From a virus (Duplodnaviria; Caudoviricetes), in the IMG/VR virus record IMGVR_UViG_3300005670_000019: DNA of 64,000 nt; one strand, written 5' to 3'. The position numbers were made by a program, and so were the translations under genes. Below, in pieces: positions 15,432 through 64,000 of this stretch. The notes under the pieces were generated by a model, which saw only the letters and a list, made by a program, of their open reading frames with translations, did not search any database and had not been told where the DNA came from. Position 1 is the stretch's first letter. Every line of letters begins with the position of its first letter.

Positions 15432-15452
15432 GGGAGCAACCGCTCCCTTTTT
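15432..15452 (+). terminator. intrinsic terminator
   Basis: GGGAGC-AACC-GCTCCC-TTTTT, immediately followed by a TACTTA motif. Confidence 0.7.
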
Positions 15453-15465
15453 CATACTTATTCTC

Positions 15466-17997: not shown

Positions 17998-18273
17998 ATG
18001 ACAAATCCAACAGATGAAGACCTCCGCAAAAAGCTTTTTGCTCTACGAAATAAGAGTGTTGAGAAAACGAATCTACCTCTTGCCATAGAAAAGATCACGA
18101 ACATTATTCGTACATGTGGACCTGTAAGAGCAAAGGAGGTCCGTCTACTAATGGAGGAGATAGGATTTTCACCATTTCTTTCTCGTACAGCAATTGCAAA
18201 AATGTGGGATACCGGACTCATAAATGTCTCCAATGAACAATATCTTCTATTGGTAGAGGATAAAAAAGAATGA
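17998..18273 (+). CDS. putative winged-helix DNA-binding protein
   Basis: GPVRAKEV...SRTAIAKMWDTGLINV; own promoter at 17961-17989. Confidence 0.5.
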   Translation: MTNPTDEDLRKKLFALRNKSVEKTNLPLAIEKITNIIRTCGPVRAKEVRLLMEEIGFSPFLSRTAIAKMWDTGLINVSNEQYLLLVEDKKE

Positions 18274-19073
18274 AAAGTCCACTTCGCTATCCTGGCGGAA
18301 AGTCAAGACTGATAAAAGAAATCCTCAAGTTCAAACCAAAAGATATCACAGAATACAGAGAACCTTTTCTTGGAGGAGGTTCTCTTTTCTTTCATTTACT
18401 TGATGACAAAGAGATTGAAATCTTCAAGGCAAGCGATACCTTTCCGGAGTTGATCAACTTCTATCAGACAATGCTTCAAAGCCCGCAGGAGCTCGTGCAG
18501 GTCATTGAAAAAATGAAGATGACCAACGAGCCATCCAAACTCTTTTCATTTTCCAAAAGCCTCCTAACGAACAAGAACTCTCATTCAAACATTGAGCAAG
18601 CTGCCGCTTTCTTCATTTTGAACAGAACATCATTTTCCGGTTTGACAATGTCTGGAGGTTTTTCAAAAGCCTCTTATGATGGACGCTTCAAGAAGCCTCA
18701 CATAGAAAAATGTGGAAGTCTAAAAAATGTGAAGAAACAAATCCAAATTAAAGAAGCTTCTTATGAAGAACTTCTATTTCAACCGACAGAGAACAAAACA
18801 TGGATCTTTCTTGATCCTCCATATGATATCAAATCATCCAATCTGTATGGGAAGAATGGTGATGGGCACAAAGGATTTGATCACGAAAAATTAGCCATTG
18901 ACTGCAAGAATAGTCAACACCAATGGTTAATTACATACAACAACAATGAACACATCAGAAACCTTTATGAGGGTTGGGCATTCATTCAAGAAGTTGATGT
19001 TGTTTACAATATGAACAGTTCAGGTAAAAAACGAAAAGAATTGTTCATCACAAACTACAAGGTTGATCAATGA
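18270..19073 (+). CDS. N6-adenine DNA methyltransferase, D12/Dam class
   Basis: LRYPGGKS, EPFLGGGS, FLDPPY. Confidence 0.93.
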   Translation: MKSPLRYPGGKSRLIKEILKFKPKDITEYREPFLGGGSLFFHLLDDKEIEIFKASDTFPELINFYQTMLQSPQELVQVIEKMKMTNEPSKLFSFSKSLLTNKNSHSNIEQAAAFFILNRTSFSGLTMSGGFSKASYDGRFKKPHIEKCGSLKNVKKQIQIKEASYEELLFQPTENKTWIFLDPPYDIKSSNLYGKNGDGHKGFDHEKLAIDCKNSQHQWLITYNNNEHIRNLYEGWAFIQEVDVVYNMNSSGKKRKELFITNYKVDQ

Positions 19074-24730: not shown

Positions 24731-24834
24731 CTAAAATCACCCAATGATCATGATTATCGGTCTAACCAAAACAATATCAGCCGAATTTATTCCATTTGAA
24801 ATTGTTGGATTGTATAAATAGATATCTGCTGTGT

Positions 24835-40122: not shown

Positions 40123-40123
40123 A

Positions 40124-40375
40124 ATGAAGATTACGAAGAAACAAATTCAAAAACTTGTTGAGAGTATCATCAAAGAGCAACAACTTGACATAAGCACTAG
40201 AGTTGAAAATCTTGAAGCGATGAGAAAAGCAATTGTGAGATATCATGCTCACGCAGAAACACTTTTTGAATTACCAACATTTCAAAGACAGTTTGAACGA
40301 GGACTGAGAGAAATTGAAGAGGCTGTAAGCAATCAAATCTTTGCTCTTCAACATCCATACACTGACAAAGACTGA
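40124..40375 (+). CDS. putative head-internal protein
   Basis: MKITKKQIQKLVESIIKE leader. Confidence 0.65.
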   Translation: MKITKKQIQKLVESIIKEQQLDISTRVENLEAMRKAIVRYHAHAETLFELPTFQRQFERGLREIEEAVSNQIFALQHPYTDKD

Positions 40376-40379
40376 AGTC

Positions 40380-41192: not shown

Positions 41193-41246
41193 TCATACTC
41201 TCTTCTAATTGGTTATCTTCCACTTAAAGACACTAAAGGATAATAG

Positions 41247-41810
41247 ATGAGCTTCTTCAAAACAAAACCCCATGAAAAGATTGGTCAAGCGCGCATAAAT
41301 GTGAAAGACCAGTCTTCTGGTTATGGAACAAATATTATCATCAAAACAGTTCGTCTTCCTGATGGTGTCATTGAGAAGTTCTTTGTTACTGATGACGGCG
41401 ATAGTGTCCAGATATTTGCTATAACCCATATGAACGAAGTGATAATGGTAAGGCAGTGGCGTCCGGGAAATGAGTCGGAGGGGCTAGAACTGCCTGGTGG
41501 TGGCTTAGAGAAGGGTGAAGACCCACTTGACGCTGCCGAACGAGAACTTGTTGAAGAGACAATGTTCTCTGCCGGACGAATGGAATACCTTGGAAGTTGT
41601 CCTTATTCTCCATACTCTAATGGAAGACGTCATATGTTCTTTGCAAGAGACTGCGTTAGAACAGAGAAACACCTTGATTTAGATGACAATGAACACTTAC
41701 AGGTTGTGAAGATGCCTTTGGACATATTCGTTGCCAAAATCAAAGAAAGTCCCGCAAGTATTCGAGGATGGGATCTTGCACTTCTTGCATTGAATAAGTT
41801 TGGATATTGA
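41247..41810 (+). CDS. Nudix hydrolase, ADP-ribose pyrophosphatase-like
   Basis: VRQWRP...LELPGGGLEKGEDPLDAAERELVEET...LDDNE. Confidence 0.88.
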   Translation: MSFFKTKPHEKIGQARINVKDQSSGYGTNIIIKTVRLPDGVIEKFFVTDDGDSVQIFAITHMNEVIMVRQWRPGNESEGLELPGGGLEKGEDPLDAAERELVEETMFSAGRMEYLGSCPYSPYSNGRRHMFFARDCVRTEKHLDLDDNEHLQVVKMPLDIFVAKIKESPASIRGWDLALLALNKFGY

Positions 41811-41859
41811 GATATTAGAACTGTAAGAAGTGGTAAGCTATTTACCCAAAAGAGGAAAT

Positions 41860-42858
41860 ATGAAGATTACAAAGAAACAATTTGACCGCCTCGTTGAAGG
41901 TTTGGTAAAAGAACAATGGGCAGATTGGGAACTGGGTTTAGGAGAAAAACCTGATGAACAAGATGAAAAGTTCCCGTTTCCTAATGATCCTGATCTGCAT
42001 GACAATGACCTAGAAGACGAGGATCTCAACGAACAGTTCGAGTGGACTGATGAAGAACTTGCTTCAATGGGCGATGAAGAAAGTGACAAAGAAGAAGCAG
42101 ACCAATGGTTTTCTGACTTTACGGGAGAACTAACTGGAACTGAAGATGAAGATGATGATGACTATCCTTGGGATGATGAGTTTGTTGGCAAGGCAGACCG
42201 TTCAGAACGAGGAATGCAGGAAGCGAAAAAGAACAGATGTTGGGATGGTTACAAGCCTGTGAAGGACAAGAAGCCTTACTCGAAGGGCTCCTGTGAAAAA
42301 GTTGATGAAGCTGTTGGTGTAGAACAGGATGAGGAATTAGAACAGGCTAGAAGAAAATTTATTGGGAAAAAAATTACTGTAAAAGATGGTGATGTTGCAA
42401 GAATAGTTCAAGTAACAAGAGAAGAAAGAAGTGGTCGTTTGATGGCTTGGTACGAATATGAACGTGTCCAAGTTCACACTGGATGGGTATGGGTAGATAA
42501 ACTTGAGGAAAAACTTCAAGAAGCAAAAAAGAAAAAGAACAAATCTCCATCTGAAAAGGTTCGCAAACCAACAGCCCCTCCTTCACGTCAGCACAAAGAT
42601 CCAACCAAGTATGATCGTAAGAGAGACAAGAAGAACGTCGATTTGAATGAGATGCGTCCAATGAGCCGAAGAGGTTCGATGATGCAAGGAAAAGGAGAGA
42701 ATGTGTCTTCCTTTTTCGTCAACAAGATGATGGCAGAAATTAAGCGTCTTCTAAAAGGAAAGATGGATTGGGTAGACTTAGATTCAATTCAAAGACTTGA
42801 AAAAGCTCTAACTGATGTTGCACGCCAAGCTTATAGTGAACTTGATGAAGTTGATTGA
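41860..42858 (+). CDS. acidic/basic putative head-internal protein
   Basis: MKITKKQFDRLVEGLVKE leader, several L.E sites, CWDGY motif; TATTTA upstream. Confidence 0.65.
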   Translation: MKITKKQFDRLVEGLVKEQWADWELGLGEKPDEQDEKFPFPNDPDLHDNDLEDEDLNEQFEWTDEELASMGDEESDKEEADQWFSDFTGELTGTEDEDDDDYPWDDEFVGKADRSERGMQEAKKNRCWDGYKPVKDKKPYSKGSCEKVDEAVGVEQDEELEQARRKFIGKKITVKDGDVARIVQVTREERSGRLMAWYEYERVQVHTGWVWVDKLEEKLQEAKKKKNKSPSEKVRKPTAPPSRQHKDPTKYDRKRDKKNVDLNEMRPMSRRGSMMQGKGENVSSFFVNKMMAEIKRLLKGKMDWVDLDSIQRLEKALTDVARQAYSELDEVD

Positions 42859-42866
42859 GGTTTGCA

Positions 42867-43487
42867 ATGAAGGAGCAAAAGTTCAATACAGGCAAGGAAC
42901 GAAATCCGTACATTTCAAAACATCCAGATCATGAAGAATGGGAAATTGTCTTGGAGAAAAGAAATGGAACGTGGGTTTGGAATGGAGATGGATGGTCACA
43001 ACCATTTTTGTTTAGACGAACAAAAGAACCAAAAATATTCACATCTCCTGAAGAAGCAAAGCAAGAACTCAAAACCGTGGTCTTACCTTACATTCTCAAA
43101 TGGCAACCGGGAGTATGGGAAGATTATGTTGTTGGTCACGAACTTCCTGATGGATATCAACTAAAAACAGAAAGCAGAAAAATGAAGATTTCAAAGAGAC
43201 AGCTTGATAAACTTGTTGAGAATGTTGTAAAGAAACAACTTCAAGAAAGAGCTTCAAAAGACGAAAATATGAAGACTATCCAAATCATGAAGGAACTTCT
43301 TCTACGACTTCGTACATACGCTGATAAACTTACAGCTCCCGGCGAAACCACAATGAATGACAACACAGTCAAAGACATTCACAAATACCTTGAAGAGATT
43401 GAAGGATGGCTTGAAGGATATGAAGCATTTATTGATCTTGACGTCTTCTGGAATAGACTTGATAGTCCATATCGACCAGAGAAATGA
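42867..43487 (+). CDS. putative head-internal protein
   Basis: internal MKISKRQLDKLVENVVKKQLQE. Confidence 0.6.
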   Translation: MKEQKFNTGKERNPYISKHPDHEEWEIVLEKRNGTWVWNGDGWSQPFLFRRTKEPKIFTSPEEAKQELKTVVLPYILKWQPGVWEDYVVGHELPDGYQLKTESRKMKISKRQLDKLVENVVKKQLQERASKDENMKTIQIMKELLLRLRTYADKLTAPGETTMNDNTVKDIHKYLEEIEGWLEGYEAFIDLDVFWNRLDSPYRPEK

Positions 43488-48788: not shown

Positions 48789-49412
48789 TCACAATTTGAA
48801 CTTTTTTGTCAACCAGTTTCCAATTCGAACTTTCAAATCTTTGGTAACGTCTTTGGCTGCGCTCTTTATGGTATCTTTCAACAAATCACCAGCAGCTTTC
48901 AAGTCTTGTGCAACATTTGATTTTGGTTCTGGTGTTTGTTCTGGTTCTTTGAACCCCGAGAAGTCCAACGATTCAAGTTCTTGATCAAGGTTTTCTTTTA
49001 TGTCCGATTGACCTTTTCCAGAAAGAACATCTTTCAAGGGCATTTGAGTTGTTGGTAACATCTTTGGATTTGCCCTCAATAGGTCACCAAGTAAAAGACT
49101 TGCAGGAGTAGGAATGAACAAAGCGTTTGTTACTCCGCCATCAGTAACGTAAAATGAATTCTCAGAACCAATGTCTCCAAGTTCTTCAAGAACCTTTTCT
49201 TTGAAAAGAGCCGGAAATTCTCCGGGTTGAAGCTTCATCTTGTCCTTGTGTTCATAAGCAACACGCCAAGTTTCTGACTTCTCTTTCTTTTCTTCTTGTG
49301 CATTTAGATGATGCTCAGTTATTTCAAGAAGGTCTTCATCATCAAGTTCTTTCTTGGCAAGAATAGAGAAAAAAAGTTTGTCACTGTATTTCTTTAGACT
49401 ATCTGAATTCAT
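48789..49412 (-). CDS. hypothetical protein coupled to the sigma gene
   Basis: 207-aa ORF, 4-nt overlap. Confidence 0.65.
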   Translation of the reverse strand: MNSDSLKKYSDKLFFSILAKKELDDEDLLEITEHHLNAQEEKKEKSETWRVAYEHKDKMKLQPGEFPALFKEKVLEELGDIGSENSFYVTDGGVTNALFIPTPASLLLGDLLRANPKMLPTTQMPLKDVLSGKGQSDIKENLDQELESLDFSGFKEPEQTPEPKSNVAQDLKAAGDLLKDTIKSAAKDVTKDLKVRIGNWLTKKFKL

Positions 49413-50137
49413 TTATTCTCCTTGTCGTTCTTTAGACTATTTGGAACGTTTTTGATAACATCAAATCTTAGAAGTAAGATTGATAACTCTCTTTTAGTTA
49501 GAGAAGAAATCGCGGACTTCATAGCTGTTCTAACAATGTCTCTGTCTGGAAGAATGTCAAGACTGTCATTGTCTAATGATATTACTTCTTTCAATGTGCA
49601 GTTTTCATCATCTGCATAGTAAGATTGATCAAGAGAAAGTATGTTTTTTGTTTTGGATGCTGCCAAAACATTCCGTCTCATACTTTCACTAATCTCTTCG
49701 CCTTCTTGAAGTTTTTCAATTGCTTCATCCAGAGATGAATTCTCATTCTTCATCTCTTTAGCAATTTTACTTTGAGCTGCTCTGACATGAGAGGGAATTT
49801 TGATGACCTGAGAGGGATCATGGTTCATGATGTAGTTGTTGACTGCTTGTCTAATCCACCATGTCGCATATGTGGAGAACTTGAATCCACGAGAAGGATC
49901 AAATCCCCTAATTGCATCCATCAATCCAAATACACCCTCTTGAATAAGATCATCTTTGTGTTTCTCAAATGTCTTTTTCGAATAGTATTTGTTGATAATG
50001 AATGTAATCAATGGTTGATTGCGTTTTATGATTTCATTTCTAACTTTCAAACTTTCATTCTTCTTGAATTCAAGAAAGAGGTCTGCGTCTGCCATGTCAG
50101 AAAATTCATTTTTCGGGGATACTTTTTCAATAATCAT
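49409..50137 (-). CDS. sigma70-family sigma factor lacking region 4.2
   Basis: DLIQEG..GL..AI..FDPSRGFKFSTYATWWIRQAV; SLD; LTKRELSILLLRF, then ends. Confidence 0.88.
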   Translation of the reverse strand: MIIEKVSPKNEFSDMADADLFLEFKKNESLKVRNEIIKRNQPLITFIINKYYSKKTFEKHKDDLIQEGVFGLMDAIRGFDPSRGFKFSTYATWWIRQAVNNYIMNHDPSQVIKIPSHVRAAQSKIAKEMKNENSSLDEAIEKLQEGEEISESMRRNVLAASKTKNILSLDQSYYADDENCTLKEVISLDNDSLDILPDRDIVRTAMKSAISSLTKRELSILLLRFDVIKNVPNSLKNDKENK

Positions 50138-51712: not shown

Positions 51713-52945
51713 TCACTTACCTTCGGGAGCCTTCTTCGCGGACGGGCGAACCACGTTCACGAGGTGATCCTTACAAAGCGGCTGGAGCAAGAGAACCAAG
51801 TCTCGACGCGGAACCAGCGGCATGTAATAGGTCATGAAAAGCTCACCCGGAAGATCCTTGAGGAAGAGCGCGAGCTGCTCGACCTGCTCCTTCGTCACCG
51901 GACGCTCCTTCTTGGTCTTTGCATCCGGCTTCGTCAGGTAAGAAACGACCTTTTCGCCGCACTCACCGAGACGGTTGACCGTCGTATTTCCGAGCTTCTT
52001 CTTTGCCTTCTCCCAATCGCGCAGGATTTCCTCGGCGGAAACCTGACGGTCACGAGTCTTGCAGAAGTTGGTGAACTTGATTCCAGCCTCGACGCCGACC
52101 ATAGCCGTTGCCATGACGTAGAAAACGTGATTGTCCGGATGCTCGTAAAGGTTTGCTCCACGAAGCTGCTCGTCCAAACGGATCCAGGCACGGCGGTCCG
52201 GATACTTCTTCATCGGCTCGAACACACCCTTGTGCTCCAAGAACTGCTCGTTCTGACGAATGAACTCGATCAAAGCCTGATCGACCTGAATGCTTTCTGC
52301 GTACTTGATCCACTCGCTCGGAGTCGGATCCAGCTCGACCGTTGCGGTACGCGAGATTTCTGCCGGGTCCTGCTGCTGGACCGTGTACTCGTCGCCGACG
52401 TTCTCAGCCACGAAGACTCGCGTTCCCTCGTGAAGCAAAAGGCTGTAATAAGCCTTGCTGTCAGCGATCTGGAAGACTGCCTGCTTCACCTGCTCAAGAG
52501 CACGGTTTCGCTCGTCGAGGAAAAGAACGACCGGAAAGTCGCTCGCGTTCACGAGCCAATCGACCGGCTTGTAAGCCGTTGCGTGCTCACCGGAAGGACG
52601 AACCTCCATGAAAGGAAGACCGATCATGTCACCTTCCGTCATCTGCGAAAGACGACGCTCGACGACGGGAAGACCAAACTCGTACTTCCAGATTTCCGAG
52701 TTGTTTCGCTTGAGGATCTTCACGACCGAACGCTCCTTCGAGAGCGCCTTCGTTACCTTCGCGCAAAACTCGGGATCCTTGTACGCCTCGTGTCGGAGGT
52801 CTGCTGCGACCTGATAGACACCTTCGGACTTACCGACAGCGTGTCGACCACGAATACAGATGGAGATATCCGGCGAAAGGGTCTTCGCCATCTGCTTGAG
52901 CGATTCCATGGAAACGGTGATTGCTAGAGAGTTGTTATTTGCCAT
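51713..52945 (-). CDS. MoxR/dynein-related AAA+ ATPase
   Basis: Walker A GRHAVGKS, RLSQMTEGDMIGLP, Walker B LFLDERNRA, DPAEISR, PDRRAW. Confidence 0.85.
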   Translation of the reverse strand: MANNNSLAITVSMESLKQMAKTLSPDISICIRGRHAVGKSEGVYQVAADLRHEAYKDPEFCAKVTKALSKERSVVKILKRNNSEIWKYEFGLPVVERRLSQMTEGDMIGLPFMEVRPSGEHATAYKPVDWLVNASDFPVVLFLDERNRALEQVKQAVFQIADSKAYYSLLLHEGTRVFVAENVGDEYTVQQQDPAEISRTATVELDPTPSEWIKYAESIQVDQALIEFIRQNEQFLEHKGVFEPMKKYPDRRAWIRLDEQLRGANLYEHPDNHVFYVMATAMVGVEAGIKFTNFCKTRDRQVSAEEILRDWEKAKKKLGNTTVNRLGECGEKVVSYLTKPDAKTKKERPVTKEQVEQLALFLKDLPGELFMTYYMPLVPRRDLVLLLQPLCKDHLVNVVRPSAKKAPEGK

Positions 52946-53026
52946 TTTATTCCTGTTTTTGGTTGTTTGTGTTTGTTGTTGAGGACAGTGCCTCGTCGTA
53001 GTTCGTTATCGTGTCTCGATGTATTC

Positions 53027-53055
53027 AATGTAGCAGGGTTGGAGTCGATTTTCAA
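53027..53055 (-). promoter_or_regulatory. TTGAAA-N17-TACATT promoter of the AAA ATPase
   Basis: CTTGAAAATCG core identical to the early promoters. Confidence 0.75.
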
Positions 53056-53085
53056 GGTTATTTTCAAGAAAACTTTGGAAAATGG

Positions 53086-53448
53086 TTATTGGGTGCGGTG
53101 CGCGACTTGGGACCGACCCACAAACTTTACTTCTTCTCCATCCACAAAATACCGGAAGCGTTCGCGAACATTGTAAAGTGTGAATAGCTTGTACTTGATT
53201 TCAATATCAGTCGAAAGGTCCAAAACGTGAAGGACTCTCTTCGTTAGTTGAAGGACAAGAAAAGTTCGGGGATTTTCTTTTGAAATTCGAAAACTTTTCA
53301 AGCTTCGAAAATCCGGAAAAGGAAAACTGACATTTCCAACTGGAACCATTTCACCCGAGACGTCACGTACAATGTCCTGCACAGAAATCACAAAAAGAGA
53401 ACCATTCTCAATGGGACGGTCGGGTTCGATTCTTGAAATAATTCTCAT
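53086..53448 (-). CDS. hypothetical protein
   Basis: 120-aa ORF. Confidence 0.55.
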   Translation of the reverse strand: MRIISRIEPDRPIENGSLFVISVQDIVRDVSGEMVPVGNVSFPFPDFRSLKSFRISKENPRTFLVLQLTKRVLHVLDLSTDIEIKYKLFTLYNVRERFRYFVDGEEVKFVGRSQVAHRTQ

Positions 53449-53498
53449 TTTGTCTTTCTGAACCTATGAGTGGAAGATAACCAATTAGAGTATGTCTA

Positions 53499-53693
53499 TC
53501 ACTCAGACGCGCGATGAATAGAAATCACATGTCCGCAACATGGAAGTTTCAGGGTCCACGAATAGAAAGTTCGAGCTCCCTTGTAACCAATCATGTGCTT
53601 CTTAGCTTCACCATAGTTGTATGACACGGTTGATCCGCATTTGTCGCAAACCACCGAAGCGTGTTGATCCCCAAGTTTTGTTACTGTTGCCAT
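53499..53693 (-). CDS. small zinc-ribbon protein
   Basis: CDKCG...PCCGH. Confidence 0.55.
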   Translation of the reverse strand: MATVTKLGDQHASVVCDKCGSTVSYNYGEAKKHMIGYKGARTFYSWTLKLPCCGHVISIHRASE

Positions 53694-53965
53694 ATATTTC
53701 TCAATTTGTTAGCTGTGGAAGTTCGCGCGAATATATATCCCTCCGCAAGGAACAGAAGGAAATGATAAATGTCACCTCCTCGAATGTCAATCGTGCGTAG
53801 AATCTTTTCCGCCTTTTCAGCTTCTTCACCTACAGTCTGCTTGATTAGGTCGATGATGAAATCCGAGTCGATGAAATGGCTCGTCCCATCCACCACAATC
53901 TCCCAATGCTTAGTTTCGAGATTCTTTTCCTCGAAGAAAACCTCAAAAAATTCTTGACTCGTCAT
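53681..53965 (-). CDS. hypothetical protein
   Basis: 94-aa ORF. Confidence 0.6.
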   Translation of the reverse strand: MTSQEFFEVFFEEKNLETKHWEIVVDGTSHFIDSDFIIDLIKQTVGEEAEKAEKILRTIDIRGGDIYHFLLFLAEGYIFARTSTANKLRNIWQQ

Positions 53966-53986
53966 TTCAGTGTACCTCTTTCAGAG

Positions 53987-54466
53987 TCACGACGGAACAA
54001 TTTCCGTCGTGATTCCTTCCTTTGCAAGTTTTGCCGAATAGATCGATGCTGCGCGAGAGTCCAGTACAAAAGGAAGGTGAAGGTTTTCAAGTTTGTGAGA
54101 AATAATAGCCTCCATGAGGTCACGGGCGGCATGTACATCACCCCGACGGGCGACGTGCTCCGAAAAGAGTGGTTCGATTCGGACTGCAATCATAGAAATC
54201 TCACGAAGAAGTTCCACTATCCTTAGAATGTCATGTCCATTGTCGACATGACGAACGAAAAGTCGCATGCATCCCTGGTCACGCACAACGGGCTTCGTCG
54301 TCTCAACAGGAACCTCTCCAGGCTCAAGAACCTTTTCACAGAGGCTCTTGACCATTTCAAAAACGACTTCCATCAGAGGAGCGCCTGCTGGCTCTGGAAG
54401 CTTGCTGAGACTTTCGAGAGCTTCCAGAAGGTTTCGAAGCTCGCTGATCTGATTGTCATACTTCAT
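53987..54466 (-). CDS. hypothetical early protein
   Basis: 159-aa ORF, coupled. Confidence 0.6.
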   Translation of the reverse strand: MKYDNQISELRNLLEALESLSKLPEPAGAPLMEVVFEMVKSLCEKVLEPGEVPVETTKPVVRDQGCMRLFVRHVDNGHDILRIVELLREISMIAVRIEPLFSEHVARRGDVHAARDLMEAIISHKLENLHLPFVLDSRAASIYSAKLAKEGITTEIVPS

Positions 54467-54651
54467 GATGATTTCTTTCGATTGGATTGTTCTGTGTACA
54501 GAACAGAGAGAGCTTCGTACAGCGCGTTAGCTTCCATGCCAACAAGTTTTGGGTCCCGAGTATCCAGCTCGGACTCGATAAACTCGACGAGTGCCGTAAG
54601 CGTGGAAATCCGCTCTTCAAGCTCTTCGTCTGTCATCGAGTTAGCGTACAT
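54463..54651 (-). CDS. hypothetical early protein
   Basis: 62-aa ORF. Confidence 0.55.
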   Translation of the reverse strand: MYANSMTDEELEERISTLTALVEFIESELDTRDPKLVGMEANALYEALSVLYTEQSNRKKSS

Positions 54652-54656
54652 TGGTT

Positions 54657-54911
54657 TCAGTCCCTTGACATGAAAGATTGCCAGACACGCTCGATGGACG
54701 GTGCCTCACGCGCTTCCTGAATTTGGAGAGCCATGCGAGCAATGACACTCGCTCCAAAAAGGACACCGCAGAAGGACACCGAAGCTGTCGTTCCCGCTCC
54801 AGTGAAGGCGAGCGCGAGCTGATTGACGAGAGCCCACACAACCCAACCACCACCGAAGAGAATGAGTTGCGACACAGCGAAAGCGACGACGAAAAGAAAA
54901 AGGCGTTCCAT
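54657..54911 (-). CDS. small two-TM membrane protein
   Basis: two hydrophobic helices. Confidence 0.55.
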   Translation of the reverse strand: MERLFLFVVAFAVSQLILFGGGWVVWALVNQLALAFTGAGTTASVSFCGVLFGASVIARMALQIQEAREAPSIERVWQSFMSRD

Positions 54912-54953
54912 GTTTTGTTCCTACGTGAAGGATTGTTCTGACTACGTTGTTTT

Positions 54954-55202
54954 TCAGAGTGTGGAGATTTCCAGAACGGTGATCTCGGTGTACTCTTCCG
55001 AGCGAAGACGCTTGTCCGTCTCCGAAATAAGATGACCGTCCTTATCGAGGCGAGCCTTCGAAACGCGAACCTCCGAAGGGTCCCAATGACGGTATGCCTC
55101 GTCGAGCCGGTTCCACTCACGAATGACGACACGCGTGTCGTCATCCAATCCTTCGATCAACTCTCGAAGCTCACCAACCGTTACCGTTCTGTCGTATGCC
55201 AT
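54954..55202 (-). CDS. hypothetical early protein (TV.EL...L..L..D type)
   Basis: TVGELRELIEGLDDD, similar to 57827..58090. Confidence 0.6.
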   Translation of the reverse strand: MAYDRTVTVGELRELIEGLDDDTRVVIREWNRLDEAYRHWDPSEVRVSKARLDKDGHLISETDKRLRSEEYTEITVLEISTL

Positions 55203-55217
55203 GTTTTGTTCTTCTGT

Positions 55218-55442
55218 TTAGTGTTCGTTATTTTCATCAAAAAGGTTGAACAGACATGCCTGTTCTCCGCGAGGAGTGTGGCTCTCCGTCCATTCCTTCA
55301 AATTTTCGAAGCGATCCTTTTGACGCGCGACTTTCTCCAACGCGTCCGCAAGTGCAGCTTCTAGCTCGCGTACCTTCGCGGACAGAGCAGCGATTTCTTC
55401 CTCAGAAACAACAATAGGACCAACGATGGTATTGAGAGACAT
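55218..55442 (-). CDS. hypothetical coiled-coil protein
   Basis: probable start MSLNTIVG. Confidence 0.55.
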   Translation of the reverse strand: MSLNTIVGPIVVSEEEIAALSAKVRELEAALADALEKVARQKDRFENLKEWTESHTPRGEQACLFNLFDENNEH

Positions 55443-55447
55443 GATGT

Positions 55448-55828
55448 TCACTTCCCCTTCGAGGCACGGGTCTTCTTCTTCGAGGTACACTCGACGTTCA
55501 GCTCGGGAGCAAGCTCGGCGATCAGAACCTTCTCGCGAGCGTGGGCGTCAGCCTTGCCACGAACCTTTTCGAGAAGCTCGATCGTGAAGTTTTCGGCACC
55601 GTGGGTGCGGAAAGCCTCGTGAAGAAGGTACGGACGAAGCTCCGTGAAGGCGTGGTGCATGTGCTTCTGCCAGCGACGCTTGAGAGCGTACGCGACCGAA
55701 CGCGAGGGCATCGCAGTGATGCCGATGTAACGCTCGCCCGTCACCAGGCACGTGATCAGGTAGATCACGTGGTTCCGGTCGGTGCGGACCTTACGCTTGC
55801 GGCTGGTGCTCTTGCTTCCCTTATCCAT
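55448..55828 (-). CDS. GIY-YIG nuclease
   Basis: VIYLITCLVTGERYIGIT...RW..H...RE...LN. Confidence 0.85.
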   Translation of the reverse strand: MDKGSKSTSRKRKVRTDRNHVIYLITCLVTGERYIGITAMPSRSVAYALKRRWQKHMHHAFTELRPYLLHEAFRTHGAENFTIELLEKVRGKADAHAREKVLIAELAPELNVECTSKKKTRASKGK

Positions 55829-55834
55829 GCTCTA

Positions 55835-55870
55835 ACCATAACATGTCCGGAACCGATTTTCAAGAAATGC
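55835..55870 (-). promoter_or_regulatory. early promoter TTGAAA-N17-TATGGT (leftward)
   Basis: -10 element lies 6 nt before the GIY-YIG ATG; a second TTGAAA-N17-TAGGAT sits at 55920-55892. Confidence 0.8.
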
Positions 55871-56214
55871 ATGTCGAATTATGGATAACCCATCCTAGCC
55901 GAAAAAGAAGGGATTTTCAAGCAACAATTCCCCGGAAAAACAGGGCAATTATACTTAGTTTTTCCTCTAATTTTACGAATGGTACATAGTGTACCATTTT
56001 TGCACAGTTGGACCCATTTTGTACAGCTTGACTGGAATTCCAATTTGGCTGTAATTCCATCGTGGCTGGAATACAGTGACCTTGAATTATGCTGTCATTG
56101 GAATACAGTATACCTGTACTCCTCTGTAGTGCATGGTAACGTATGGTCATAGCCATACATTGTGCCAGGATGCATGTATGGTCAAAAAATTGTTGGGGCA
56201 TTTCTTGAAAATCG
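55854..56214. repeat. 17-bp perfect inverted repeats flanking a repeat-rich non-coding spacer
   Basis: CGATTTTCAAGAAATGC (55854-55870) / GCATTTCTTGAAAATCG (56198-56214). Confidence 0.85.
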
Positions 56215-56233
56215 ATCCTAAATGTTGTATGGT
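56198..56233 (+). promoter_or_regulatory. early promoter TTGAAA-N17-TATGGT (rightward)
   Basis: TTGAAA 56205, TATGGT 56228. Confidence 0.8.
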
Positions 56234-56259
56234 AAGAGAGTAAGGAACAGGAGAAAACC

Positions 56260-57171
56260 ATGTTCATCAAGTTTGACGACGCGTTTGCGAGTTTCCAACT
56301 TTGGCTCCGTGCAAATCCCAATGCGGCTGCCAAGCTTCCGTCGAAGTCGTTTGCTGACGCGCACGACGGTCGAGCCTTCGTGCAGAAGTACGCGAAGGAA
56401 TGGACGAACGAAATGCTCTTTGCGTACCTGCTTGTGGCAGGTTGTGCCGAGGGGTCGACGTTCAACTGTGATGACCTTGTTGCCTGCGCGACCGAATCGC
56501 AGCAGGCTTGGCTAAATGGCGGCGACAAGACTGTTCGTTATCGGTTTCAGTCTCATTGGGATGGACACAATTTCGCGAATAGCCTCGAAGAAATGAAGGC
56601 TTCGACCATTCCATACATTCAAATTCACACTACTTCCAGCCCGAAGGGTGATGCCTACGTTTCGCTTGCGAAGGTGTCCGGCGTCGCCTACGGGGTCGAG
56701 CGTGGAGTTTTCAGTACGGGCATCTTGGAGAGGGTTATTCGTGGCGAGAAGAAGCTCTTCGTTTGGAAGAGCCTTTCGGAAGAAACGGCATATTTTCGGC
56801 GTTCGGAAAACGACCTCGGCACCGATTTCAGTAAGTACATGGCTCACTGCTTCGCCAAGCTCTATCGCATTTCGCTCAAGTCGAAGCCGAAGAAGGTCAA
56901 GCCGACCGTGGTGTCGAAGGCAGTCGAATTCCACACCGATCAGATGAAGCTGCTCGCGGTAGCGGACCAGCTCGCGGTGAAGCTTCAAGCTTTCCGAAGC
57001 GACCTCGAAAATGGAAATCTCAACAAGCAAGTGGTGACGGAACTTTACTGGCAGTTCGAGGAACTGCAACGGAACACCACGGAAACCAAGAAGACGCATA
57101 AGCGTTTTGTTGGTGAAACGGCGGAGGATACGCGGAAGCTCGCGGAGGCTGGTCTTACCAGCGAGAAGTGA
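56260..57171 (+). CDS. early protein, paralog family member 1
   Basis: shares its C-terminal helical domain with 58173 and 59063. Confidence 0.75.
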   Translation: MFIKFDDAFASFQLWLRANPNAAAKLPSKSFADAHDGRAFVQKYAKEWTNEMLFAYLLVAGCAEGSTFNCDDLVACATESQQAWLNGGDKTVRYRFQSHWDGHNFANSLEEMKASTIPYIQIHTTSSPKGDAYVSLAKVSGVAYGVERGVFSTGILERVIRGEKKLFVWKSLSEETAYFRRSENDLGTDFSKYMAHCFAKLYRISLKSKPKKVKPTVVSKAVEFHTDQMKLLAVADQLAVKLQAFRSDLENGNLNKQVVTELYWQFEELQRNTTETKKTHKRFVGETAEDTRKLAEAGLTSEK

Positions 57172-57177
57172 CAAAAA

Positions 57178-57408
57178 ATGTCCAAGAAAGAACAACAGAA
57201 AAAGAAGAGGTTGAGTGAGGAGGAGTTTCTCCTACAGTCTCTTTATTTCCGCAAATATATCCTTCCGGATTTTCTGAACAAGAAGACGCCAGCAGCTTTT
57301 GCTTTTCTGGCAGAAATTCGAAAAGACCTTGAAGCCGAGGCGGACATTCAGTTCCACTTGGAAAAGGCACGCAAGGCAAACAACCCGCTCGTACCAGAAA
57401 AGAAGTGA
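57178..57408 (+). CDS. hypothetical protein
   Basis: 76-aa ORF. Confidence 0.55.
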   Translation: MSKKEQQKKKRLSEEEFLLQSLYFRKYILPDFLNKKTPAAFAFLAEIRKDLEAEADIQFHLEKARKANNPLVPEKK

Positions 57409-57803
57409 GAGAAGACATGTTTGGAATTGGAAACGAACAAAAGGCAGTCGAAGTTTCGCAAGCGGAAATTGCGGAAGACATTGAAGTGGTTCGGAAGTTG
57501 TTCTTGAAGCATGAGAAGTTTCTTCGTGTGGAAGAGTCCAACGAAGGCGGACATTTCATTCGTGCTCCGATGCTTCGAAACTTGCAAAAAGAAATTCTTG
57601 ATGCTCTTCCGGGACGGATTGTGATGAAGTTTGGTGGAAATCCACCCTTGGTTCATATCTTCTTCCGTGACCATCACTTTTTCGAGACGACTTATACCGA
57701 GCGAAAGCTTGTGACTCGCGTGCGTGAATTGGAGCGCGAAGTTGAATATCTTCGAAGTCTTGTTCGTGTGTACGAGGTTGCTCTTCACGGCAATGACCAT
57801 TGA
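57405..57803 (+). CDS. hypothetical protein
   Basis: 132-aa ORF, coupled. Confidence 0.6.
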   Translation: MREDMFGIGNEQKAVEVSQAEIAEDIEVVRKLFLKHEKFLRVEESNEGGHFIRAPMLRNLQKEILDALPGRIVMKFGGNPPLVHIFFRDHHFFETTYTERKLVTRVRELEREVEYLRSLVRVYEVALHGNDH

Positions 57804-57826
57804 CCCCGAGCTTGAAAGGAATTCCC

Positions 57827-58090
57827 ATGACTAGCGCAGTTCAAAAGGAAAGCACGGCTCGAACGTTTCTTACGGTTCGAGAGCTTATCGCGGAGCTTCA
57901 AAAGCTTCCAGAAGACCTTCAAAACGCTCCAGTTGCAAAGAGTGTCTATGACCTTGGAAGTCATTCTTGGGTTGTGACTGGAGTTGATGAGCTTGTTCCT
58001 TCGCCTGCGAAGGTTGTAAAGGAACGTTACCTCGTTGAGGTTGATAATCCTGTGGAAGGAAAGCTTGTAAAGGTTGTCATCCTTTACTGA
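57827..58090 (+). CDS. hypothetical protein (TV.ELI..L..LP.D type)
   Basis: LTVRELIAELQKLPED. Confidence 0.6.
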   Translation: MTSAVQKESTARTFLTVRELIAELQKLPEDLQNAPVAKSVYDLGSHSWVVTGVDELVPSPAKVVKERYLVEVDNPVEGKLVKVVILY

Positions 58091-59875: not shown

Positions 59876-60466
59876 TCATTCGCTGAACAGTTCAGGTAGA
59901 ACAGATTTCAACCAGTTTCTAACTTCTCCTTGAGGCATTTCACCAAGGTCTTTATAGGGTTTTGGTGTGCTGATAGACATAGAAGCAACAGACTTTAGTT
60001 TATTTCCAGCATCGTCATTGTCGGCAACGGCAATGACTTTTTTATTCATGGCAGCAAACCATGGTTTTAGCATCTTAGGATGATTTGCTAGAACAGCAAT
60101 TGCAGGCATTCCAATGTTGTGCAGCTTGACAGCATCAAAGATACCCTCTGTGACAAATAGGAAATCTTGGTTGTCAAAGACAGTTTCCAAGCCCCAAACA
60201 CCAATGGTCTTTTCTGGATGTTTTGTAATATACGTCCAGTATTTTGCCTTATCCCTGTCTCTGCTGTCGTTACCTGTCTTGGTTCCTTTTGGATTGTATT
60301 GTTGATATCCAACGAGTTGACCGGAAAGGTTGAAAAGAAGGAAAACGGCAAGGTTGTTTTCCTTGTCCATAATCACCCGTGTCTTTGATAGATCAACATC
60401 ACGCGATCGAAGATGGGATTCAATGTCATCATTCTCACATAAAAGAATTTGTTTTAGAGAAAACAT
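59876..60466 (-). CDS. primase-like Toprim protein without zinc-binding domain
   Basis: FVTEGIFDA, VADNDDAG, KDLGE; starts MFSLKQILLCE. Confidence 0.8.
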   Translation of the reverse strand: MFSLKQILLCENDDIESHLRSRDVDLSKTRVIMDKENNLAVFLLFNLSGQLVGYQQYNPKGTKTGNDSRDRDKAKYWTYITKHPEKTIGVWGLETVFDNQDFLFVTEGIFDAVKLHNIGMPAIAVLANHPKMLKPWFAAMNKKVIAVADNDDAGNKLKSVASMSISTPKPYKDLGEMPQGEVRNWLKSVLPELFSE

Positions 60467-60481: not shown

Positions 60482-61201
60482 TCACAAGTTTGCGAACATG
60501 TCCTTGAAAAGGAATTTTGAATTAGCACGAGGTTCCCCAGTTTGTTTTGATTCTTCTGGATTGATCCAAATGATCATTTTCTCATAACGAACAGGACCAT
60601 AAGAAATTACTTCGTTCTCTTTCTTATAAAGTTTTGGCATCTTTACCTTTGAGTTCAACTCATCAGGATTTAGCAGAAACTTACCATTCTTCTTTATTGG
60701 CATTGTCTTGAACAAAACAACATATTCTTGGAAAGAATATGCAAATTCTTTCAGAATTTCTTTTTTTGTAGTCCATGACAATATAGGAGAATGCTCTGTT
60801 TCCAATACACCATTTTCAAAAACCCAAAGACGTTCGTCGCCAGGATTTCTTGCAAGGTCTTCTTTTGATAGTCCAGTCGTATTGAAAAACAAATCTAAAT
60901 TTACAGAACTAAAAGAAATTCCTCTATAAATCGGTTCATTTTCCGGAACAAGTAAGTTTGAATACTTGCCTTTCTGTGCCAGTTTGTAAACGTCCGGAAA
61001 TTCCTGAGCTATTTTGTCCGCCACCTGACTATTGATCCATTGAAAAAGTCCTTTCTTGAAATCTTCTTCTTCTGGAGTCTCTGGTTGTTTCTCTGTTTTT
61101 GAAATGTCTTTTCTGTCTCTATCAAAGAGATACTTGCCAAAAACATCATTTGGTTTGGCTTCGGACGGAGCGTCTTCAAATATTAATTTTTTGATGCTCA
61201 T
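60482..61201 (-). CDS. R-S-E type ADP-ribosyltransferase-like protein
   Basis: PIYRG, LSWTT, ENEV; leader MSIKKLIFE. Confidence 0.65.
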   Translation of the reverse strand: MSIKKLIFEDAPSEAKPNDVFGKYLFDRDRKDISKTEKQPETPEEEDFKKGLFQWINSQVADKIAQEFPDVYKLAQKGKYSNLLVPENEPIYRGISFSSVNLDLFFNTTGLSKEDLARNPGDERLWVFENGVLETEHSPILSWTTKKEILKEFAYSFQEYVVLFKTMPIKKNGKFLLNPDELNSKVKMPKLYKKENEVISYGPVRYEKMIIWINPEESKQTGEPRANSKFLFKDMFANL

Positions 61202-62106
61202 GACTCTTCTGTCTTTTCTGGATAGTTTACACGACCGCCACTCATCGTTGCACCAGAGAAAAGGTCATTGAAGAACGGAATGACAAACTTTCTTCCTTTG
61301 TAAATCGAATAAAAATCATCTTGATCTTGCGCAACAGGAAGAACAACACTTCTTGGTTCCGTGGCATTTCCAGAGCCATCTGTGTAAAGAAGTTCTGCTT
61401 TCATTTGACCATCTTCTTGTCTCTCAACGAAGATTACACTTTCTTGTTCAAACTTCTTTCCAAGGAAAAGTAGATCATCTTTCGAAATGTTTGGAATAAC
61501 TAAAGGCTTTTCAACGTTTCCATATTTGCCTTGTATTTGGTAGAAACCATAACCAGCTTGACGTAGAGATTGTGCAAGCATCTTGTTTCTCTTCTTGTTT
61601 TCTTCTGGAGGCAGTTCCTTCGCAAATGGATTTTCTGCTGTCACAATTCCGATTGATGAAATGTTTTTTTCTTGTCCTGTGAGGCTTCTCATCAGTTTTG
61701 AATATCCACCCTCTGCAAGGTCCCCTTCATTTATTTGCACAGCCTCAGAGAGCCTTCTAGGTGCCTTGCCGTTGAAGCCAAATAGATGAGGTGAGACAAG
61801 AGCAGGACGAACAGAAAGAAGGTCACGAAGTCGAAGTTTACCTTCACCATAAAGGTCAACAATTTCAATTCCTCGTTTCTCTTCATCTTCATTTTCTTTG
61901 CTTGATTTATCATCCCAATACCAAGGTGCTTCATCATTTGGATTTGGAAGTTGAAGTTCATCCTGCTTCTGCTGATTTCTTTCGTCTTCTTCTTTCTTTT
62001 GACGATCAATCTCCCAAGGAGACGGAACCCAATCTTGTTCACTTAGGGTTTCTGAACTTGAGATGTTTTCTTTGATTGTGAACTTTTTCTTCTTACTCAT
62101 TTTCAT
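61198..62106 (-). CDS. SAM-lyase / DUF3293-like protein with acidic N-terminal extension
   Basis: IVTAENP...EN..RN..L...L...GKYG..E...LGKKFEQESVI...AELLY..G...GRKF. Confidence 0.6.
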   Translation of the reverse strand: MKMSKKKKFTIKENISSSETLSEQDWVPSPWEIDRQKKEEDERNQQKQDELQLPNPNDEAPWYWDDKSSKENEDEEKRGIEIVDLYGEGKLRLRDLLSVRPALVSPHLFGFNGKAPRRLSEAVQINEGDLAEGGYSKLMRSLTGQEKNISSIGIVTAENPFAKELPPEENKKRNKMLAQSLRQAGYGFYQIQGKYGNVEKPLVIPNISKDDLLFLGKKFEQESVIFVERQEDGQMKAELLYTDGSGNATEPRSVVLPVAQDQDDFYSIYKGRKFVIPFFNDLFSGATMSGGRVNYPEKTEES

Positions 62107-63031
62107 TCTCCATCAGATCATACATGCTTCGGATGATCCTTCTTAGGGATACGGTACCAAACTCATTTGATATAAATACTGCTGTCGCAGCTTGAACTTT
62201 CACATCTCCGAAAGAAATAACTTCACCTTCAGTCGAAAGCATGTTGATCATTGCCACATGATCGCTGTCCTTCGGTCGTAAGTTCGAGGTCATTTCATAA
62301 GGGTTTAGAAGGAATTTTCCATTTGATGGATTGGGCACTGTCTTCATCAAGATATTCACTTCTCCCCCTTTTAGGAAATTCTGCAATATAAGAGGCTCAA
62401 TTCCCCAAGACTGAAGTTTTTTGTTTGGCGGCGGATAAGAAATAGGAATATCGACTTTGAAAGGAATATTATCAAGAACTTTTTGGAGCTCAATACCATT
62501 CTTCAAATCTTCAATCTTTTTCTGAAAGGTTGGATTTGATGTTAGTCCAAGGGCTTTTGCCACATTGAAACCATGAACAATCCGATAAACAGGACGTTCT
62601 TCATCTGGCTTTAGAAACTTTTCATACTTTCCTTGACGAACAAGTTTCCAAGCTTCTTCAAAATTGGATGAAAGGGCAGTGTGATGAGTGTCGTTTATCC
62701 AAGACGCTAAGGAATCAAGAAGTTCATCTTCTTCGGGGGTATTCTTTTCTTTTGAAGCCCTAGTTTCAGCTCGCTGATCACCAAACAAAAACTCTCCAAA
62801 GATATCATCTTTGGAGGCTTCGACTTCTTGTTCAACAATCATATCAACAATGCCTTCAAGGACCGATTGAAGTTGTTCTTTTTCCTTTGAGGAAGCTACA
62901 TCTTCAAGACCTTTCAAAGCCTGTTTCTTGGCATCGAGTTTCTTTTGTTTCTGACGTTCTGCATAGGACTTTGCATCAGTACCTAAAGCTGTGTCAGTTG
63001 AACCGACTTTCGTTGGTTTCGTAGGAATCAT
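62093..63031 (-). CDS. R-S-E type ADP-ribosyltransferase-like protein, paralog of 60482..61201
   Basis: DIFGEFLF, GKY, PVYR, LQSWG, GKFLLNP, EGEVISFG. Confidence 0.6.
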   Translation of the reverse strand: MIPTKPTKVGSTDTALGTDAKSYAERQKQKKLDAKKQALKGLEDVASSKEKEQLQSVLEGIVDMIVEQEVEASKDDIFGEFLFGDQRAETRASKEKNTPEEDELLDSLASWINDTHHTALSSNFEEAWKLVRQGKYEKFLKPDEERPVYRIVHGFNVAKALGLTSNPTFQKKIEDLKNGIELQKVLDNIPFKVDIPISYPPPNKKLQSWGIEPLILQNFLKGGEVNILMKTVPNPSNGKFLLNPYEMTSNLRPKDSDHVAMINMLSTEGEVISFGDVKVQAATAVFISNEFGTVSLRRIIRSMYDLMENENE

Positions 63032-63036
63032 GAGGA

Positions 63037-63042
63037 TAAATA
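63037..63042 (-). promoter_or_regulatory. TATTTA putative late promoter heading the ART/SAM-lyase/ART/Toprim operon
   Basis: one of about 12 TA(T/C)TTA sites upstream of structural or tagged genes. Confidence 0.6.
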
Positions 63043-63048
63043 GAGAAA

Positions 63049-63363
63049 TTATTCATCATCATCCCAAATACTTACAACCCCAGGAGCGGGAATAGGTGAA
63101 AAGAAATTTTTTGTAAACTCCAAATCTCCAACAATCCAGTCAGGTCTACTTTTCTCATTCTCTTCTGTTCGAGGATTTGCTTTATTCAAACCATGAACAA
63201 ACGTCCATCTACAATCTTCACATGAATATCGAATGGCACTATCACATGGATGACAAGACAGAAATCTTGGTGTTCCATCTGGATTTGTTCCGGATTTATA
63301 TGTGTGGCAATCATAAGCCCAATAAAGATTGGTCGATGAACAATTTGGACATTTCTGTTTCAT
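63049..63363 (-). CDS. Cys-rich zinc-finger protein
   Basis: CPNC...C...CHPC...CEDC; probable start MKQKC. Confidence 0.55.
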   Translation of the reverse strand: MKQKCPNCSSTNLYWAYDCHTYKSGTNPDGTPRFLSCHPCDSAIRYSCEDCRWTFVHGLNKANPRTEENEKSRPDWIVGDLEFTKNFFSPIPAPGVVSIWDDDE

Positions 63364-63394
63364 AGCTTGAGTATGACATTTCAGTGCTAATTTT

Positions 63395-64000
63395 TCAAAG
63401 ATTGTGTTTGTCATGTTCTTCTTTGTGGCAGGATTTACAAAGAACAATTCCTGAGACGTTGTTGTCAATATGATATTGAGCGACTTCATTAGAGATTTTT
63501 TGTTTTAGAGCAAATGTTTCCTCTGTTGTTGGAAGACCAAAATAATCTTTCCAATTGTTAGAGATAGCTATACGTCTTACAATTTCACTCATTTGTTCTT
63601 TGTTGTGATGAACTTCAAGGTCTGCTCTTGGAGTATCATTTCTACTTGCTTTACACTTTTCACAAGAAAAATTTGATGCTGCAAGTTTTGGATATTTCCA
63701 TTTTTCAAAAAGTTTTTTACTCGCATGACACGTGGCTAAAAGAGATGAAGTTCCACCTTTCCATTGTGAATGGTCCTTGCCTGACAAAGTTGGAATAGTT
63801 CCATTCAAGCGATTTTCTTTCATTCGTTTTGAACGCTTTTCCTTTTCTGGACCTTTTACAATGGACTGAGACATTTTGGCAATGCGTTTATCAGTTTCTT
63901 TTGTAAGACCCTTCGCCCAATGTTCACCAGTTTCATTCAAATGAAAAGGTTTCCAAGTCCCATCTTCAACCATTTTTCTTCGTGTTGAAGCACTCTTTTG
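63395..64000 (-). CDS. HNH homing-endonuclease-like protein; 5' end outside the window
   Basis: WAKGLTKETD and QWKGG NUMOD-like motifs, CEKC, LEVHH, LCKSCH...H; frame stays open to 64000. Confidence 0.8.
   Translation of the reverse strand, partial: QKSASTRRKMVEDGTWKPFHLNETGEHWAKGLTKETDKRIAKMSQSIVKGPEKEKRSKRMKENRLNGTIPTLSGKDHSQWKGGTSSLLATCHASKKLFEKWKYPKLAASNFSCEKCKASRNDTPRADLEVHHNKEQMSEIVRRIAISNNWKDYFGLPTTEETFALKQKISNEVAQYHIDNNVSGIVLCKSCHKEEHDKHNL

Follow-up and report, generated by a model that had tools for sequence, protein, structure and literature searches.

The window analysed here is a stretch of 64,000 nucleotides from a Caudoviricetes phage (IMG/VR record IMGVR_UViG_3300005670_000019), and the gene in question lies on its minus strand at 61198-62106. 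It is predicted to encode an S-adenosylmethionine (SAM) lyase domain of the T3 SAMase kind, preceded by a long disordered N-terminal extension, with a junction between them that follows the pattern of gp21-type head protease sites. The open reading frame (ORF) of 302 amino acids from the first ATG is present in the window. A Shine-Dalgarno-like GGAG lies 7 nucleotides 5' of the second ATG (62100) and ortholog N-termini read MSKK, so the gene product probably has 300 residues and starts at 62100. The parts of the gene are as follows.

61198..62106, minus strand: whole ORF, 302 amino acids from the first ATG (likely start 62100, 300 amino acids)
61717..62106, minus strand: N-terminal extension, residues 1-130, predicted disordered apart from one helix, lineage-restricted and under purifying selection
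61711..61752, minus strand: junction, residues 119-132, with candidate sites LSE/A, INE/G and LAE/G (the slash marks the cut, here and below)
61222..61710, minus strand: predicted SAM-lyase catalytic domain (DUF3293 / S-AdoMet_lyase), residues 133-295
61510..61530, minus strand: G193-K-Y195-G196-N-V-E199, candidate equivalents of Svi3-3 G56/Y58/E69 (T3 E68)
61438..61446, minus strand: Q221-E222-S223, candidate equivalents of Svi3-3 Q104-E105-S106 (T3 Q94-D95)

The C-terminal domain matches two Pfam families above their cut-offs, DUF3293 with 46.9 bits (cut-off 25) over residues 155-224 and S-AdoMet_lyase (PF23780) with 30.9 bits (cut-off 28) over residues 163-272. A weak PHROG match, phrog_2226, is labelled "SAM-dependent methyltransferase", and the RefSeq record of T3 gp0.3 bears the same misnomer. 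Sequence-profile searches of the PDB with two alignments (A1 and A3) gave no match at E <= 10. The AlphaFold2 model of the protein, built from 50 homologs, is confident at residues ~134-295 (predicted local distance difference test score, pLDDT, 87-95 in the core) and has the ferredoxin-like or PII-like alpha-beta sandwich of T3 SAMase. Foldseek searched with this model ranked T3 SAM lyase at the top (8bb1_E, E 1.6e-5) with Svi3-3 next, the two enzymes against which the first-pass annotation, made from the letters alone, had proposed a comparison. The VIA fold search, which is independent of Foldseek, matched T3 SAMase (7ock_L) with Z 12.9 and a root-mean-square deviation of 2.6 Å over 131/152 residues, compared with Z 6.8 for Svi3-3 and at most 5.4 for unrelated ferredoxin-like folds.

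The residues T156-A-E-(N)-P160, G193, G196, E199, and Q221 do not vary among the 50 homologs, and Y195 hardly varies across a 20-sequence alignment. In Svi3-3, mutagenesis has identified G56, Y58, E69, Q104, and E105 as the SAM-binding set (PMC7877911), with E68 and Q94(/D95) as the T3 equivalents; the T3 E68Q/Q94A double mutant is inactive (bioRxiv 10.1101/2023.02.27.530186). The candidates G193-K-Y195, E199, and Q221-E222-S223 match this set in order and in secondary-structure position, a mapping made by motif order and not by superposition. The T3 SAMase sequence shows the same motif order (G-C-Y ... E-E ... E-Q-D-C), and a hidden Markov model alignment pairs EQESV with T3 EQDCV, non-significantly. 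The first-pass annotation had listed six motifs of a T3 SAMase-type enzyme, and all six are found in order (IGIVTAENP, ENKKRNKMLAQSL, GKYGNVE, EQESV, AELLYTDG, and GRKF). Its assignment of the domain is borne out by the Pfam profiles, the fold match to T3 SAMase and the conservation of the SAM-binding residues.

Two results weigh against this assignment. Direct comparison of the domain with T3 SAMase by hhalign and hmmsearch was not significant, and the Tyr-to-Glu spacing is 4 residues (Y195-E199) compared with 11 in both Svi3-3 and T3, indicating that the active-site loop differs from theirs. On the predicted structure, residues ~132-295 are highly likely to be a lyase of the T3 SAMase kind; we do not go further because the mapping follows motif order, the T3 alignment is non-significant and the Tyr-Glu spacing is shorter. 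That SAM itself is the substrate appears somewhat less likely than the assignment to this kind, and we infer the enzymatic activity. The protein thus resembles T3 SAMase (gp0.3; PDB 7OCK, 8BB1) in fold, in Pfam family and in the order of the Glu and Gln-acidic motifs, and both are presumed to act against restriction and BREX. Unlike the target, T3 SAMase has 152 residues and no extension and is encoded by the first early gene, whereas the target carries its 130-residue extension beside tail genes. Svi3-3 (PDB 6ZM9) shares the fold type and the candidate binding residues; it is the weaker fold match, and its short disordered tail, of which 19 residues were removed in the crystal construct, is dispensable for activity. 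The domain assignment is already reachable from Pfam, and phage SAM lyases are known; what is new, on the predicted model, is the link between a DUF3293-type phage clade and the T3 SAMase fold.

In the AlphaFold2 model, residues 1-131 have pLDDT below 50 except for a charged helix at residues 30-50. The first-pass annotation had called this region acidic; its composition is mixed-charge and not strongly acidic, with 21% D+E, 17% K+R and a net charge of -6. A search of the extension against 1.84 billion representative proteins returned orthologs only, plus one spurious repeat protein (P0054, 590 amino acids), which matched residues 74-100 six times and was rejected as unrelated and repetitive. 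Between the window and a 300-kilobase relative, the extension shows pN 0.15 and pS 0.70, giving a ratio of nonsynonymous to synonymous substitution rates (dN/dS) of ~0.08, and the catalytic domain has a dN/dS of 0.05; because dS is saturated, these ratios are approximate. The sequence comparison indicates that the extension is under strong purifying selection and is not junk. Conserved blocks within it include W-x-P-S-P-W-E-I, Q-L-P-N-P-N-D-E-A, R-G-I-E-I, and P-A-L-V-x-P-H-L-F. Most homologs have ~190 amino acids and carry a leader of 10-35 residues in place of the long extension. The move next to tail genes and the gain of ~100 residues are specific to this lineage. An origin of the extension by fusion with an upstream 99-amino-acid ORF (locus L055) was rejected: the two show no similarity, and that ORF is GroES-like.

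The sites LSE/A, INE/G, and LAE/G lie at residues 119-133, where predicted disorder gives way to the domain. Residues 133-302 contain no L/I-x-E, compared with about 2 expected, and the placement of these sites in the target sequence is non-random. Across the 50 homologs, the tripeptide before the domain has L or I at P3 in 43, E at P1 in all 50, and G, S or A at P1' in 42. Motif counts were also tested family-wide on 20 non-redundant representatives (<60% identity). L/I-x-E was the top-enriched motif in their leaders with the junction left out (17 compared with 8.5 expected, z = 3.4), and it was depleted in their catalytic domains (19 compared with 34.5, z = -2.9), where L-x-D and L-x-Q showed no depletion. 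In a strain 97% identical to the window, a 676-nucleotide insertion falls exactly at the junction. The resulting proteins of 508-521 amino acids (P0002 and P0003; L005:10001-11566 and L044:19319-20884) consist of the extension, a domain of ~210 residues flanked by L-x-E sites, and the lyase. The inserted domain matches no Pfam family; a G-x-G-S-S-R-I-V-Y ... V-Y-K-V-P stretch may give it a kinase-like look. Cleavage at the junction by a head protease is plausible on this sequence pattern.

A protease was sought on contigs nearly identical to the window, which come from the same species of phage but from other molecules. Contig L044 matches the window at 97-98% nucleotide identity over 59.0-63.4 kilobases and L051 at 98.1% over 11.2 kilobases, and L051 and L052 are one contig. 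On L052, a Portal_T4 gene is followed by a 287-amino-acid gene, a Peptidase_S77 gene (L052:6064-6708), genes of 166, 171 and 730 amino acids and a Gp23-family capsid gene, with a gp13-like neck gene, the sheath and the tube further downstream. The portal gene (L052:1929-5159, T4-type) contains an intein (Pfam Intein_splicing). The S77 protein aligns with T4 gp21 with 52 identities, covering the GEL.H and G.SSR.LGS stretches, which we take to be the catalytic His and Ser motifs of gp21-type proteases. Four L-x-E sites fall within the first 60 residues of the capsid protein and the next at residue 422, and in the same protein L-L-R-E/A-N-S aligns to the maturation site of T4 gp23, L-T-E65/A66. 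The S77 gene and the capsid LRE/A at the gp23 cut make it very likely, as judged from these alignments, that this phage has a gp21-type protease of L-x-E/small specificity. S77 was found in 5/5 other large relatives searched: Microcystis phage Mel-JY01, a 484-kilobase uncultured phage and three phages of 185-252 kilobases, and the latter three carry distant lyase homologs. One of them, of 252 kilobases, encodes a 669-amino-acid protein (L030:8666-10675) with a P-loop (G-A-G-S-G-K-G) in its N-terminal part and a lyase domain at its C-terminus. The nearest record, a 32-kilobase fragment (G001), contains neither the lyase gene nor S77.

In T4, the internal proteins and Alt carry capsid-targeting leaders of 10-20 residues that are removed by gp21, and they accompany the DNA into the host (PMC3012670, PMC7411985). 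Apart from a shared capsid-targeting sequence, the internal proteins are diverse anti-restriction cargo with no relationship to one another (PMC3012670), and Alt is a packaged, gp21-processed ADP-ribosyltransferase (PMC7411985). The target resembles the T4 proteins IPI-III and Alt in having an N-terminal leader that ends in L/I-x-E, in a phage with the same head module and protease family; in contrast, its leader has ~130 residues, and its packaging is a proposal. We know of no T4 internal protein that is a SAM lyase. In the giant phage SPN3US, gp53, gp54 (ejection proteins) and the capsid protein have propeptides of 124-130 residues, and gp47 has one of 111 residues that is proposed to target it into the prohead (PMC7411985). 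Among jumbo phages there is thus precedent for head cargo with a 130-residue extension. Like the source of the target, SPN3US is a jumbo myophage, and the propeptides of gp47, gp53, and gp54 are cut after x-x-E by a gp21-like protease and are proposed to serve capsid targeting; they share no sequence relationship with the target, and their processing is proteomically proven, unlike that of the target.

The closest homolog in a cultured phage is found in Flavobacterium elemo podophages (34% identity over residues 112-247), and a second tblastn against cultured phages, with a homolog from a T4-like phage, again returned only these podophages; blastn of the window at 58-64 kilobases against cultured phages gave no match. 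In the elemo podophages, DUF3293 occupies residues 1323-1392 of a 3,694-amino-acid "structural" protein and is its only recognisable domain. The same domain in a protein so labelled suggests virion delivery. The label is the depositor's, and a literature search found no proteomics paper behind it; the protein also differs from the target in being giant and multidomain and in belonging to a podophage without S77 protease.

The genes around the lyase gene, together with the phage DNA methyltransferase, are as follows.

62093..63031, minus strand: upstream paralog, 312 amino acids, probable R-S-ExE ADP-ribosyltransferase, overlapping the start of the lyase gene by 14 nucleotides
60482..61201, minus strand: downstream paralog, 239 amino acids, probable ADP-ribosyltransferase with N-terminus MSIKKLIFE, overlapping the stop of the lyase gene by 4 nucleotides
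59876..60466, minus strand: Toprim-domain protein, 196 amino acids, final gene of the string
63036..63043, minus strand: CTATTTAT motif, 4 nucleotides 5' of the ATG of the 312-amino-acid gene
18270..19073, plus strand: SAM-dependent DNA methyltransferase of the phage

In the sister strain, the gene order is sheath, a 995-amino-acid gene, two small genes, tube (gp19-like), a 129-amino-acid gene, a 99-amino-acid gene, the 312-amino-acid gene, lyase, the 239-amino-acid gene and Toprim, and the genes from tube to Toprim share one strand, with gaps below 30 nucleotides. The window differs in lacking the 99-amino-acid gene and in having an HNH-type gene ahead of the 146-amino-acid homolog of the 129-amino-acid gene. 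The HNH-type ORF (63395-63973, minus strand) is His/Cys-rich, has no Pfam match and separates the tube region from the effector string; the counterpart of the 129-amino-acid gene is a zinc-ribbon ORF (63049-63489, minus strand). The 8-mer CTATTTAT occurs twice in the window, at 63036-63043 and 24814-24821 (both minus strand, intergenic and sense). Five further copies in related loci (L044 1723, 8694, and 18065; L052 13043 and 20100) lie at most 20 nucleotides 5' of the starts of gp13-region, pre-sheath, DUF7178, and 99-amino-acid genes, and a 7-mer version is found upstream of the portal gene. All seven copies are intergenic and in sense orientation, and 6/7 stand 4-20 nucleotides 5' of a virion-module gene start, which makes CTATTTAT a candidate late promoter or initiation element. 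Its position suggests, on small total counts, that the lyase string is co-regulated with virion genes. A sigma-70 promoter scan was at background level. The window also encodes a sigma-70 region-2 protein (49409-50137, minus strand; Pfam Sigma70_r2, E 5.6e-16).

The 312- and 239-amino-acid genes on either side of the lyase gene are related to each other as paralogs (33% identity, E 2e-24). Their Y-R, S-W, and E-x-E residues are invariant, and they have almost no homologs beyond this lineage. The fold model of the 239-amino-acid neighbour is weak (pLDDT 55), and so is each of its structural matches, which include pertussis S1 (Z 5.8), EcPltA (5.6), and TreX (5.4); KptA, LT, Scabin, HopU1, and DarT are further ADP-ribosyltransferases among the matches. 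Pfam and PHROGs gave no ADP-ribosyltransferase match for either gene. Because ADP-ribosyltransferases predominate among the structural matches and the Y-R, S-W, and E-x-E residues are invariant, the two genes probably encode R-S-E ADP-ribosyltransferases. In the 300-kilobase relative, a 74-amino-acid ORF (L002:9784-10008) replaces the 312-amino-acid gene and matches only its first 68 residues, at 75% identity, indicating that the N-terminal piece of the 312-amino-acid protein is a separable module.

Short N-terminal peptides recur on otherwise unlike proteins of this phage. KK[IL][IL]FE starts three unrelated proteins, compared with 0.1 expected from shuffling: a Nudix hydrolase (15421-16320, plus strand), a phrog_3560 protein (19070-20203, plus strand), and the ADP-ribosyltransferase-like protein at 60482-61201 (minus strand). 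A second, separate Nudix hydrolase is encoded at 41247-41810 (plus strand). The lyase homolog P0007 has an extra C-terminal part starting K-L-T-K-K-Q-L-E-K-L-I-E, and a peptide of this type starts three window ORFs at 40-42 kilobases and is internal in two more, the five being otherwise dissimilar. These ORFs (39433, 40124, 40380, 41860, and 42855, within 39433-43487, plus strand) share ~18 residues of the form K-I-[TS]-x-K-Q-x-x-x-L-[IV]-E-[SGN]-x-[IV], N-terminal in three and around residue 105-111 in two. Proteins of the L052 head module contain the peptide as well, and a distant lyase homolog (L033) begins with it. N-termini in the head module read M-K-M-S-G-K-Q-F-K-S-L-I-K-E and M-K-L-S-K-K-K-L-G-A-L-I-E. 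By sequence, these leader motifs are real and enriched.

The window encodes UvsX, a DnaB-type helicase, ribonucleotide reductase, thymidylate synthase, a DNA methyltransferase, and a baseplate hub, and lyase orthologs are found on contigs of up to 301 kilobases. Among cultured phages, the sheath protein is closest to that of Microcystis phage Mel-JY01, at only 29% identity, and it has a further match in the 484-kilobase uncultured phage. By gene content and sequence relationship, the source is a deep-branching T4-like jumbo myophage (~300 kilobases) without a cultured relative. Positions 52000-58000 have a G+C content of 48-51%, compared with 37-40% elsewhere, and contain a GIY-YIG gene (55448-55828) and ORFs without a family; by composition, this island may be a mobile or foreign insert. 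The first-pass annotation had pointed to a SAM-dependent methylase in the same phage, and the methyltransferase at 18270-19073 is indeed one (phrog_56, E 2e-61).

By analogy with T4 and SPN3US, our best model, which we hold tentatively and at a little less than an even chance, is a SAM lyase with a prohead-targeting propeptide. The lyase would be made along with the tail and head genes, the extension would load it into the prohead, the gp21-type S77 protease would trim it at the LSE/A, INE/G, LAE/G cluster, and the mature enzyme of ~170 residues would be ejected into the next host together with the DNA. There, as a T3-type lyase, it would convert SAM to methylthioadenosine and homoserine lactone and counter type I/III restriction and BREX. 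Sequestration in the head would meanwhile spare SAM for the phage's own methylase. Svi3-3 turns over ~9.5 SAM per second, from which a few tens of injected molecules could matter in a slow-growing host. We infer the substrate, the timing of expression, packaging, cleavage, and ejection.

Several results weigh against packaging. The N-terminus of the target scored 6.9 bits against the recurrent-leader profile (rank 11/19,076 windows, P ~0.002), compared with 32-35 bits for true leader instances, five of which trained the profile; the target as a clear carrier of the recurrent leader was rejected on this marginal match. The T4 late promoter TATAAATA showed no enrichment. The first-pass annotation had described repeated L/I-x-E sites in the pro-region: LSE, INE, and LAE are present at the border, but the number in residues 1-131, 4 (5 with LAE 130-132) compared with 2.3-2.4 expected, does not exceed chance (p = 0.18). 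Hydrophobic-x-acidic spacing is favoured in amphipathic helices, and deviations are seen for other periodic motifs in the domain too, so the test is confounded by the conserved columns of a homologous family. The [LI]-x-E/GGY junction is also kept in short forms that lack the extension, so the junction Glu may be a structural element of the domain and not a cleavage site. These short forms lie in replication or nucleotide-metabolism modules and not in virion modules.

Of these points, the chance-level L/I-x-E count, the junction kept in short forms and the modules of the short forms also favour a cytoplasmic SAM lyase that is never packaged, a serious possibility although on balance we doubt it. 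The extension would then bind a partner such as the host SAM synthase or a phage protein, or control stability or oligomerisation, and L-x-E would be a helix cap. The short forms, which share the same junction, lie in early or middle nucleotide-metabolism modules, the N-terminus of T3 SAMase binds MetK (bioRxiv 10.1101/2023.02.27.530186), and the conserved Trp/Pro-rich short motifs of the extension are typical of binding peptides. However, a cytoplasmic role leaves unexplained the move next to tail genes with a common upstream motif, the strict gp21-type P3/P1/P1' pattern in a protease-bearing phage, and the clean modular insertion at the junction in the sister strain.

Another sulfonium substrate such as SAM-AMP, or a non-catalytic PII-like ligand-binding role, is improbable and would be compatible with the other readings. 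[quoted passage not shown] By description, it resembles the target in its N-terminal fused part, which is a domain in AcrIIIB4 and disordered in the target. No characterised DUF3293 member was found, and the Y195-E199 loop length is unlike that of T3 and Svi3-3, both of which leave room for such a substrate. Yet the closest structure by a wide margin is T3 SAMase; the best-ranked fold matches included no SAM-AMP lyase, which does not in itself speak against one, and the conserved Glu and Gln are common to both enzyme types and do not discriminate.

Quite improbable is the proposal of the first-pass annotation that the extension inhibits the lyase during the lytic cycle, saving SAM for the methylase until head-maturation cleavage activates the enzyme. 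The methylase, the protease and the junction sites are present, the active sites of Svi3-3 lie at oligomer interfaces, so an N-terminal appendage could hinder assembly, and truncated Svi3-3 is about 2x as active as the tagged full-length form; against this, the predicted disordered extension makes no confident contact with the domain in the model, and prohead sequestration alone would resolve the conflict over SAM with no need for inhibition. Moreover, a 461-kilobase phage carries a short-form lyase (~25-residue leader) between two DNA methyltransferase genes, so coexistence of lyase and methylase needs no long pro-region. Elsewhere, short forms adjoin ribonucleotide reductase and ThyX, or DnaB and polymerase. 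Gene neighbourhoods indicate that such coexistence is common.

What the target adds beyond the domain assignment is a constrained 130-residue extension, a clade-wide gp21-type junction, and a virion-adjacent context. Should the packaging model be wrong, there would still be a well-conserved disordered appendage on a counter-defence enzyme, and the uncharacterised DUF3293 family is tied to the T3 SAMase fold. In small phages, SAM lyases are known counter-defences encoded by early genes. If packaging does take place, injection of a ready-made SAM lyase would be a new delivery route, the enzyme acting before phage transcription, and it would explain how one phage can carry a SAM-destroying enzyme together with SAM-dependent methylases. 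We consider it rather unlikely that the injected lyase is one of a larger set of leader-tagged, head-loaded enzymes (ADP-ribosyltransferases, Nudix, Toprim, and others) with portable leaders and L-x-E linkers; if it were, the set would amount to the T4 internal-protein system in a greatly enlarged, enzymatic form.

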